A stretch of 64,000 nt of DNA from Anaerohalosphaeraceae bacterium (GTDB taxonomy: Bacteria; Planctomycetota; Phycisphaerae; Sedimentisphaerales; Anaerohalosphaeraceae): positions 148,136-212,135 of the forward strand of contig JBNRMN010000067.1 in NCBI GenBank assembly GCA_050309605.1. Reading direction: 5' to 3'. A program made the position numbers. Shown here piece by piece: positions 33,901 to 36,900 of the stretch; the first letter of the stretch is position 1, and every line of letters starts with the position of its first letter.

Positions 33901-36900
33901 TTTGGGCGCTGGCAGTACGATTGCCGGCTGCATCAAGAGCCTGATCGAGCAGCGCGAAAAAGAAGCGGCATAAGTAAATTAAAAAGGCAAAAGGCAGATG
34001 GCAAACGTGTGGAGCCGACCTTTGGCCGCGGATGTTTTGATTTAAGGTCAGTCATTTGAAGCTTGGGATTTGAGGTGACGGATAGCGCCAAGCTCAAATC
34101 CAAGAGCTAAGAACTAAGAACTAATTCGGATTGCTGCAGAGTTGCCCGAGCAAGCGGTTAAACGGACGGCGGAGTCCGGCTACTTTGCGGCGCAGTGTAT
34201 AACAGGAGTTTATAAAATGTCGGAACGTGAATTTGCAGCGGACATCAAAGAACTGGGAGACAAGATTGCGGGGTTGACCCTGATTCAGGCCAAGGAACTG
34301 GCGGATTATCTGAAGGACGCCTATGACATCGAGCCGGCTTCGGGCGGCGCGGTGATGGTGGCCGGTCCGGCGGCGGGCGGCGGCGAAGGCGATCAGGCCG
34401 AAGAGAAGACCAGCTTTACGGTGATGCTCAAGAGCATCGGCGATAAGAAGATCCAGGTGATCAAGGAAGTGCGCGCCCTGACCAATCTGGGGCTGAAGGA
34501 AGCCAAAGACCTGGTCGATGGCGCTCCCAAGCCTGTCAAGGAAAACGTCAGCAAGGACGAGGCCGAGGCGGCCAAGAAGCAGCTTGAAGAAGCCGGCGCG
34601 ACGGTGGAACTGGTTTAACGGTGTTGATGGGTACGGAGGTTTTATGCCGCGCGGCCGGTTGAACCGGCGCGGCCGGAATAACGAGGCAGCGACCGCGTTG
34701 TTCGAAATAAAGACCGATAACATAAGCCCGAACGGCGGCCGGGACAAACGTTCCGGCCGCTGCGGGTCTTGATGTTTTTAGGGGGCAGGCGGGCGGTTGT
34801 CACGGAACCGGGACGCTTGTGCCTTGAAATTCGGATTCCGAGTTGAGCGTTTTGTCGATAAGCGCTGTTTGTGTAATTATTCAATAGTTAATGAACGCAT
34901 CAAGCATAATGGAGACTGGTCGCATGAGATCACGAACACTCCGTAATTTTGCGAAAATCGCGGATGCCATTGAAGTTCCCGATCTGATAGAAGTGCAGCT
35001 GAAAGGCTACGAGCGTTTTCTGCAGTCCGATGCGGCGCCGGATCAGCGCGCCGATATCGGTCTGGAGTCGCTGTTTCGGGAAGTGTTTCCGATCGTCAGC
35101 TATGACAAGACGGTTGAGCTGGAATATCTGGGCTACGAGCTGGAGAAGCCGCGTTATACCATTGAACAGTGCAAGGAATTGCGTCTGAGCTATGCCTATC
35201 CGCTGAAAGTGCACTGTCGGCTGAAACGCAAGGATGCGCCCGATGTGGCCGAGCAGGGGATTTATCTGGGCGAGATTCCGGCGATGATCGGCGGCGGCGA
35301 GTTTATCATCAACGGGGCCGAGCGTGTCATCGTCAATCAGCTTCACCGCAGTCCGGGTGTGGATTTTGTGATTGACAACAAGGACGGCGACCGGCTGCTG
35401 CACGGGGCGCGGATTATTCCCGAACGCGGAAGCTGGATCGAGATGAGCGTGACCAAAAAAGACGTGCTGGTGATTCGCATTGACCAGTCCAGCAAGATTC
35501 CGGCCACGGCGTTTCTGCGGGCGATGGATGAAAAATACGGCAAGACCGAAGAGATTCTGCGTCTGTTTTACAAGACCCAGAAGATCAAGACCAAGAAGCT
35601 GGAGCCGACGATGTGGGCGGTCGGGCCGGTTGTCGATACCGAAACCGGCGAGATTCTCGTGGAGGCCGGCACGCAGATCGGCGATGCGATTACGGCGCTT
35701 CAGGCCAGCAGTCTGGACGCGGTGGAAGTGATTGCTCAAGTGCTTGATCCGCTGGTACTGAATACGGTTGCCGAGGACGGTTGTGAGACGCATGATGAGG
35801 CATTGCTGAAGATTTATTCGCGTCTGCGTCCGGGCAACCCGGCCAATCTTGAGAAGGCCAAACAGCTCTTTGAGGAGAAATTCTACGATACCAATCGGTA
35901 TCGTCTCGGTGCGGTCGGTCGATTTCGTCTGAATCGCAAGTTCGGCACCGACATTGAGTTGAGCGAGATGCGGTTGTGTGCTGAGGACTTTTTGCAGACG
36001 ATGAAGTATATTCTCGGCCTGCGCAACGGCGAAGGGGAGATTGACGATATTGACCATCTGGGCAACCGTCGGGTACGGACGATTGATGAGCTGGCGGCCG
36101 GCGAGGTGCGCAAAGGCCTGCTCAAGCTGCGGCGAACGGTCCAGGAACGGATGAGTATGAAATCGCCCGAAGAGATCGCGCGGATCGCGGATCTGGTCAA
36201 CAGCAAGAGCGTTTCGAGCAGCATTGAGTTTTTCTTCGGTCGGGGTGAACTGAGTCAGGTGGTCGATCAGACCAATGCGCTGAGTCAGTTGACGCATGAA
36301 CGGCGTTTGAGTGCACTGGGGCCGGGCGGGTTGAACCGCAAACGCGCCGGCTTTGAGGTGCGCGACGTGCACATCAGTCACTACGGCCGTGTGTGTCCGA
36401 TTGAGACGCCGGAAGGGACGAACATCGGGCTGATCGTGTCGCTGGGGATATTCTCCAAGGTCGATGAATACGGCTTTTTGATTACGCCGTATCGCAAGGT
36501 CAAAAATAAGCAGGTCGTCGATGAAATTGCTTATCTGCGGGCCGACGAGGAAATGAAGGCGATTTTTGCGCCGCCGAGTATGGTCGATACCTCGACCAAT
36601 CGACTGCACGAAGGGCTGGTGCTGGCGCGGCAGGAAGGCGACTTGACGCAGGTGGACAGCAGTCAGGTCGATTATGTTGACGTCTCGCCGCGACAGACGG
36701 TGGGTGTTTCAGCGGCGTTGATTCCGTTTTTGGAGCACGACGACGCCAACCGCGCGCTGATGGGGTCCAATATGCAGCGTCAGTCGGTGCCGCTGCTGAC
36801 CACCGAGCCGCCGCTGGTGGGGACGGGTATGGAAGTGGAAGTAGCCAGGCATTCGAGCATGGTCGTGCGGGCGCGACAGGCCGGGACGGTCACGGCGGTT

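Follow-up and report, generated by a model that had tools for sequence, protein, structure and literature searches.

Introduction

The closest described relative of the element reported here is the L10(L12)4-binding L10_leader RNA of rplJL (RF00557; Fu et al., 2013, PMC3616713; Yakhnin et al., 2015, PMC4538822), which belongs to the same operon and corresponds to the same rRNA region; by our comparison with two such leaders, it also has a G-C pair in the same register. The accessible text of PMC3616713 states that a kink-turn (tandem GA/GA with a 3-nt bulge) is always present in the stem of this leader, and both papers, in the portions available, call the kink-turn critical. The rRNA site of L10 is treated in PMC1635324, in whose available sections L10 reads the upper stem of H42 together with the loops joining H42-43 and H43-44. 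According to the same sections, removal of the apex of H43 costs little affinity, deletion of H43 or H44 abolishes binding, and L10 alone binds far more weakly than the complex.

A literature search that had most subscription journals outside its scope found no leader before rplL. The accessible portion of PMC7247131, supplement included, holds one L10 leader only, that of PMC10931766 describes only rplJ leaders, and that of PMC11109978, its supplement apart, does not mention rplL. Here, we describe an RNA element located before rplL that has no match in Rfam 15, and we propose it as a candidate L10 leader of a kind not described before, which has no kink-turn and would act on rplL.

Results

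A three-way junction lies between rplJ and rplL

The window, which is the whole stretch of 64,000 nt analysed in this study, contains the gene order tuf-rpmG-secE-nusG-rplK-rplA-rplJ-rplL-rpoB, in which all names except rplJ (L10) are our own assignments. The genome belongs to the Planctomycetota, as genomes of its class occur in the phylum of a named planctomycete, and the class is probably Phycisphaerae. The product of rplJ (uL10; 33440..33973, + strand), which is the proposed ligand, matches PDB L10 chains with a best E of 5e-15, and its alignment with an L10 of 173 aa extends to the C-terminus, which would suggest three L12-dimer sites. The downstream gene, rplL (bL12; 34217..34618, + strand), is an ORF read from ATG that has one match each in 31/31 genomes of the relatives search, and we take its product to be L12 from its sequence and operon position. 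The spacer between the two genes is 243 nt long and ends in a conserved block. Its + strand shows no terminator-like and no promoter-like site in the window; an intrinsic terminator following the sensor, as a transcription attenuator would have, is therefore not present on this strand between rplJ and rplL of the window.

The initial annotation had placed a conserved structured element of about 70 nt here, starting at 34135 and ahead of the ribosome-binding site of rplL. Its presence and place are confirmed, while its size and start are revised: the core is a three-way junction of about 60 nt that begins two bases earlier (34133-34191), ends about 25 nt before the rplL start, and is followed by the conserved Shine-Dalgarno sequence AGGAG (34204..34208, + strand), which lies outside the fold. 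The 5' strand of the first helix, P1 (34133..34145, + strand), is the equivalent of upper H42 and forms covarying pairs with the 3' strand (34179..34191, + strand). P1 is a mostly continuous helix without a GA/GA kink-turn; G34144 pairs with C34180 and U34143 faces U34181, so that a G-C pair stands second from the junction (46/47 elements) and a U.U mismatch third (33/47). P2 (34146..34157, + strand) is a hairpin of variable length, a stub equivalent of H43, whose first three pairs are formed in 45, 47, and 44 of the 47 elements. The junction linker UUAAA (34158..34162, + strand) is the same as the H43-H44 linker of the genome's own 23S rRNA; it occurs in 46/47 elements, for which the parser required U-[UA]-AAA, and in 14/14 held-out model matches. 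P3 (34163..34178, + strand), the equivalent of H44, is a hairpin of 16-19 nt with the C-G-closed loop GGCGGA (34168-34173). Most order-level copies likewise have a C-G-closed G..A hexaloop, and in P3 96% of cells are paired, with two-sided change at all 6 pairs.

Some loci vary around this core. In six class-level loci (L042, L045, L046, L053, L333, and L334), a short conserved motif and an extra hairpin lie between the junction and the Shine-Dalgarno sequence, and in some class-level families this insertion places the AUG as much as about 55 nt from the fold. A small bulge or 3x1 loop is found in the P1 5' strand, 6-8 pairs below the junction, in L031, L033, L040, L052, L338, and L344, as well as in L243-L245, L249, and L273. 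It sits near the position of the rRNA kink-turn, is not a GA/GA kink-turn, and is perhaps a substitute bend. The part of the window's spacer upstream of the element (33990-34125) holds genome-specific hairpins and short 7-base tandem repeats, one repeat unit of which differs in number in a public run that probably consists of DNA contigs. Several relatives have hairpins of a similar, REP-like kind in their ribosomal spacers.

The element is supported by conservation and covariation

The element was found in 30/30 loci of genus, family, and order relatives, including the window's own locus; the search matched 31 genomes and returned 30 loci, one of which is that of the window. Single-sequence folding of the window was uninformative (z -1.6, with an inner fold that differs from the junction), so the structure rests on comparison. 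RNAalifold applied to a sequence-only MAFFT alignment returned the three-way junction, with compensatory change at 16/18 pairs, and all three helices covary. In total, 84.3% of pair cells are paired, compared with 69.7% in column shuffles (0/500 as high) and 31-55% when the 3' partners were slid. The reservation of the initial annotation that only five pairs were well kept is thus removed. Of the two-sided changes counted in 23 phylogenetically independent pairs, 59 preserve pairing and 6 do not, compared with 4-7 and 26-42 in slid controls, a test that leans towards the structure because its anchors came from a pairing-aware parser. The element therefore shows what the available text of PMC7247131 asks of a ribosomal-protein leader, a covarying structure that stands consistently 5' of a ribosomal-protein gene in single copy. 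The likeness to an rRNA site of an operon protein, optional in that text, extends to the junction half of the L10 site only.

These results leave a near-negligible probability that the sequence is not a dedicated element but arose by chance, as a palindromic mobile repeat, or as coding sequence that extends L12. Such an origin could draw on the repeat-like hairpins further upstream in the window's spacer and on the rplL frame, whose ORF in the window reaches back to 34142, but it conflicts with the single copy per genome and with the excess of pairing-keeping changes in the independent pairs. A REP-like mobile repeat, which would have many copies at unrelated loci, was rejected on copy number. 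An N-terminal extension of L12 from TTG 34142 was rejected as well, since it is not conserved and in-frame stops lie just upstream of rplL in several relatives, whose open frame is 134-138 aa.

The element is widespread in the class and has an analogue in Verrucomicrobiota

Among further class-level loci, 17/27 carry the junction. A covariance model (R2), for which 46 of the 47 elements served as input, matches 77/121 genomes of the class, the window's and the training genomes included, and does so once each in 76/77. These counts contradict the absence at class level suggested earlier, and the element is not restricted to the order. Of the 78 R2 matches, 50 were checked: the best 30 are without exception in the rplJ-rplL spacer, and of 20 with lower rank 18 are at rplL, so that 48/50 adjoin this gene. 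Over all R2 searches, three weak matches (L331, L340, and L346) are away from it. Six families gave no R2 match (0/12, 0/2, 0/2, 0/4, 0/4, and 0/4 genomes). Outside the class, the element was seen in 0/27 rplL loci, and the junction is absent from three named Planctomycetia loci. Over 101 genomes of the phylum, R2 gave 6 matches, five of them from the window's class and one weak and not at rplL. In five loci of two junction-lacking families (L034, L035, and L037-L039), other conserved motifs precede rplL, one of them in a hairpin with a U/A-rich stretch, and these are possibly further rplL leaders.

An analogous junction was found before rplL in 16/37 Verrucomicrobiota loci, including 7/7 from named genomes; five were re-registered by hand. 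It has the order helix-hairpin-U[UCG]AAA-hairpin with an invariant G-C pair, shows covariation in a 7-sequence alignment, contains no kink-turn (0/16), and has no Rfam match in 20 Verrucomicrobiota loci. It shares with the Planctomycetota element the position, the topology, the U-N-AAA linker, the invariant G-C pair, and the lack of a kink-turn, but its G-C pair is directly at the junction, its P1 has 5-6 bp, and it stands closer to the AUG (8-28 nt before it in 12 elements). Neither phylum's covariance model detects the other's junction, although the Verrucomicrobiota model, R3, is narrow and also missed the nine other Verrucomicrobiota elements outside its building set. The two junctions may share descent or may have arisen by convergence. 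In four of the Verrucomicrobiota loci (L243-L245 and L249), a second conserved structured block lies about 60 nt upstream of the junction.

The element resembles the junction half of the L10 site and lacks the kink-turn

We compared the element with the rRNA sequences of the same genome, using conventional helix names and numbering. In the genome's own 23S rRNA, upper H42 leads into H43, UUAAA, and H44 (16 nt) before the chain returns to H42, and a kink-turn lies 8 pairs below the junction. The element has the same three-way topology, the identical UUAAA, a G-C pair in the same register (46/47), and a third hairpin of similar length (16-19 nt) that in most order-level copies carries the C-G-closed G..A hexaloop. 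In contrast to the rRNA site, it has no Kt-42, its H43 is cut to a variable G-C-rich stub, and P1 contains a U.U mismatch; nothing in the rRNA site corresponds to this conserved mismatch or to the conserved loop G. R2 does not score 23S loci, so that a small number of features carry the likeness, and one of them, a U-N-A-A-A linker at a three-way junction, also serves as a building block of RNAs in general. Judged by these features, the element is an apparent imitation of the genome's own H42/H43/H44 junction, which is part of the L10 site. The proposal that it resembles the L10-binding part of 23S rRNA consequently holds for the junction half and fails for Kt-42, and the fold, the position, and the rRNA likeness together make the element a candidate for an rRNA-mimicking leader ahead of rplL. 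Set against the available sections of PMC1635324, the element keeps the parts read by L10 and drops the dispensable one; the critical role given to the kink-turn in PMC3616713 and PMC4538822 speaks against this reading.

The initial annotation had called this an L10-type kink-turn element. A GA/GA kink-turn at the rRNA register is present in 0/47 elements, with one off-register candidate (1/47), while the same test is positive in the genome's own 23S rRNA and in 2/2 canonical leaders, so this name does not fit. The two canonical leaders, fetched from Chloroflexota, share the G-C pair and have a UUAAU linker, and their kink-turn is in the register of the rRNA. Both lack an H44-like hairpin, which is obligate in our element and optional according to the accessible part of PMC3616713. 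Canonical leaders therefore reproduce the loop adenosines and the lower half of the L10 site, and our element reproduces the upper junction. With RF00557 the element shares the unpaired UUAA linker after a hairpin, corresponding to the unpaired UAA/AA in the loop above the stem. It differs in having no kink-turn in the stem, no terminator, and a position at rplL instead of upstream of rplJ, and it does not reach the Rfam gathering threshold of this family. At gathering score, Rfam reports only tRNAs in the window, and at E<=10 the operon gives a single chance match, in agreement with the earlier finding of no Rfam match for the element.

No leader precedes rplJ, and a permuted L1 site precedes rplA

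The rplA-rplJ spacer of the window (33403..33439, + strand) is 37 nt long and has no leader. In 28/28 loci, inspected by eye, these spacers (1-111 nt) have nothing in common beyond a ribosome-binding site, and the junction parser reached a best score of 14.0 over 46 pre-rplJ regions, compared with 14.3-21.4 for the 47 elements. The absence of a conserved leader before rplJ, noted earlier, is thus upheld. RF00557 has no match in 101 genomes of the phylum and none over the cut-off in 41 Verrucomicrobiota genomes, and it is positive in control genomes and in Chloroflexota. Two weak RF00557 matches in Verrucomicrobiota were rejected, as they are not before rplJ. When a C-terminal motif was used to find the end of rplA, and a few visibly wrong spacer lengths were set aside, rplA and rplJ were also commonly overlapping or closely spaced in other Planctomycetota and Verrucomicrobiota lineages, which lack the rplL element. 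Since these lineages combine short spacers with no RF00557 match over the cut-off, the rplJ leader has been lost more widely than the element is distributed, and relocation of a leader within the operon, as first supposed, becomes one possible history; replacement or independent invention fits as well.

A mimic of the L1-binding site lies before rplA (32661..32689, + strand), with its strands in reverse order to 23S rRNA (circular permutation), as seen by comparison with the genome's own 23S site. A strict pattern of this permuted site occurs in 20/30 class loci, the window included; two more loci differ by one base, one has the rRNA order, and one has a permuted site before rplK. The permuted mimic is followed by a hairpin next to the Shine-Dalgarno sequence, and our literature search found no description of a permuted L1 site. 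The rplK-rplA spacer also contains a short palindromic repeat (32590-32630) with several look-alikes elsewhere in the genome.

Discussion

With slightly better than even confidence, we propose that L10(L12)n binds the junction and represses translation of rplL, while L1 covers rplA-rplJ. The junction in the rplL leader would imitate H42/H43/H44 of 23S rRNA, and L10-L12 stalk complex made in excess of the free 23S rRNA would dock on it. The docked complex would hinder 30S loading at the nearby rplL start and throttle L12 synthesis on its own, and rplA together with the closely following rplJ would be governed by the L1 site before rplA. The control exerted by the element would fall on L12, which is probably tuned separately from L10. 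The distances are consistent with such steric blocking, as the end of P1 is a median of 13 nt from the Shine-Dalgarno sequence and 26 nt from the AUG, except in five class-level loci, where the fold ends 52-56 nt before the AUG, which is far for this mode of action.

The fold itself does not cover the Shine-Dalgarno sequence, which counts against the proposed repression, and a switch based on anti-Shine-Dalgarno pairing was rejected because no conserved pairing of this kind was seen. In computed ensembles, enforcing the fold lowers Shine-Dalgarno accessibility in 1/47 elements and raises it by >0.1 in 13/47, with the median moving from 0.60 to 0.69. This would also allow the opposite sign of control, in which L10, free or under-loaded with L12, stabilises the junction and frees the rplL ribosome-binding site, so that surplus L10 yields more L12 and sets a ratio of 4-6:1. 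The accessibility gains are in its favour, as are a P1 that is unformed in the free ensemble at several loci and a position before rplL only, which fits a device for uneven stoichiometry. We nevertheless regard such an ON switch as quite unlikely given the lack of conserved anti-Shine-Dalgarno pairing, the small median change, the weak RNA binding by L10 alone reported in the available sections of PMC1635324, and the repressive action of all published L10 leaders compared in the accessible text of PMC3616713, PMC4538822, and PMC10931766. That two PVC lineages each placed a kink-turn-free mimic of the stalk base before rplL as an activating leader is accordingly doubtful to the same degree.

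The open Shine-Dalgarno sequence and the missing kink-turn would also agree with a role independent of protein binding or related to nucleases, in which the fold marks a processing site, protects a separate rplL mRNA, or insulates the rplL start, raising L12 output. In a methanogen, a cut between rplJ and rplL boosts L12 translation, according to the accessible part of PMC5499594. The archaeal rplA-rplJ-rplL operon resembles the present one in having an L1 site before rplA (PMC3616713, available text), no rplJ leader, and a separate device in the rplJ-rplL spacer, but that device is an RNA cut that unmasks the ribosome-binding site (PMC5499594, available text), whereas here it is a conserved rRNA mimic. 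A processing or stability role appears unlikely to us, for it leaves unexplained why, in two phyla with freely varying stems, the single-stranded UUAAA and the G-C pair agree with the L10 site.

The identity of the ligand was considered separately. The product of rplK, the first gene of the operon, is a further candidate, since the imitated rRNA segment is the L11 domain, and L11 might act alone or with L10; the P1 of Verrucomicrobiota (5-6 bp) is also about as long as the terminal stem of that domain, within the domain limits that we assume. The L11-binding rRNA domain has a conserved H43 stem with a U.A tertiary pair to H44. In the element, P2 is variable, and P2 position 4 and P3 position 2 are not conserved and do not hold the U and A of this pair. 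L11 moreover reads the apex of H43 (PMC1635324, available sections), which corresponds to the least conserved arm of the element, and L11 as ligand is improbable in our view. Ligands other than L10(L12)n or L11 are very improbable.

Binding of L10(L12)n to the junction is the reading that we carry forward. L12 alone among ribosomal proteins is required in several copies, and the way in which it is kept in excess of L10 has been explained only in part. The known L10 leaders act on rplJ and rplL jointly, and a 60-nt sensor before rplL alone would be a small module for stoichiometry control. The element also offers a natural test of whether L10 can recognise an RNA without the kink-turn that is said to be essential. 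If our proposal is true, the junction would represent another class of L10 leader that differs in structure from the known one and occurs in two phyla in which the latter was not detected; if instead the ON switch were true, it would be an activating ribosomal-protein leader that directly sets the 4-6:1 ratio of L12 to L10.
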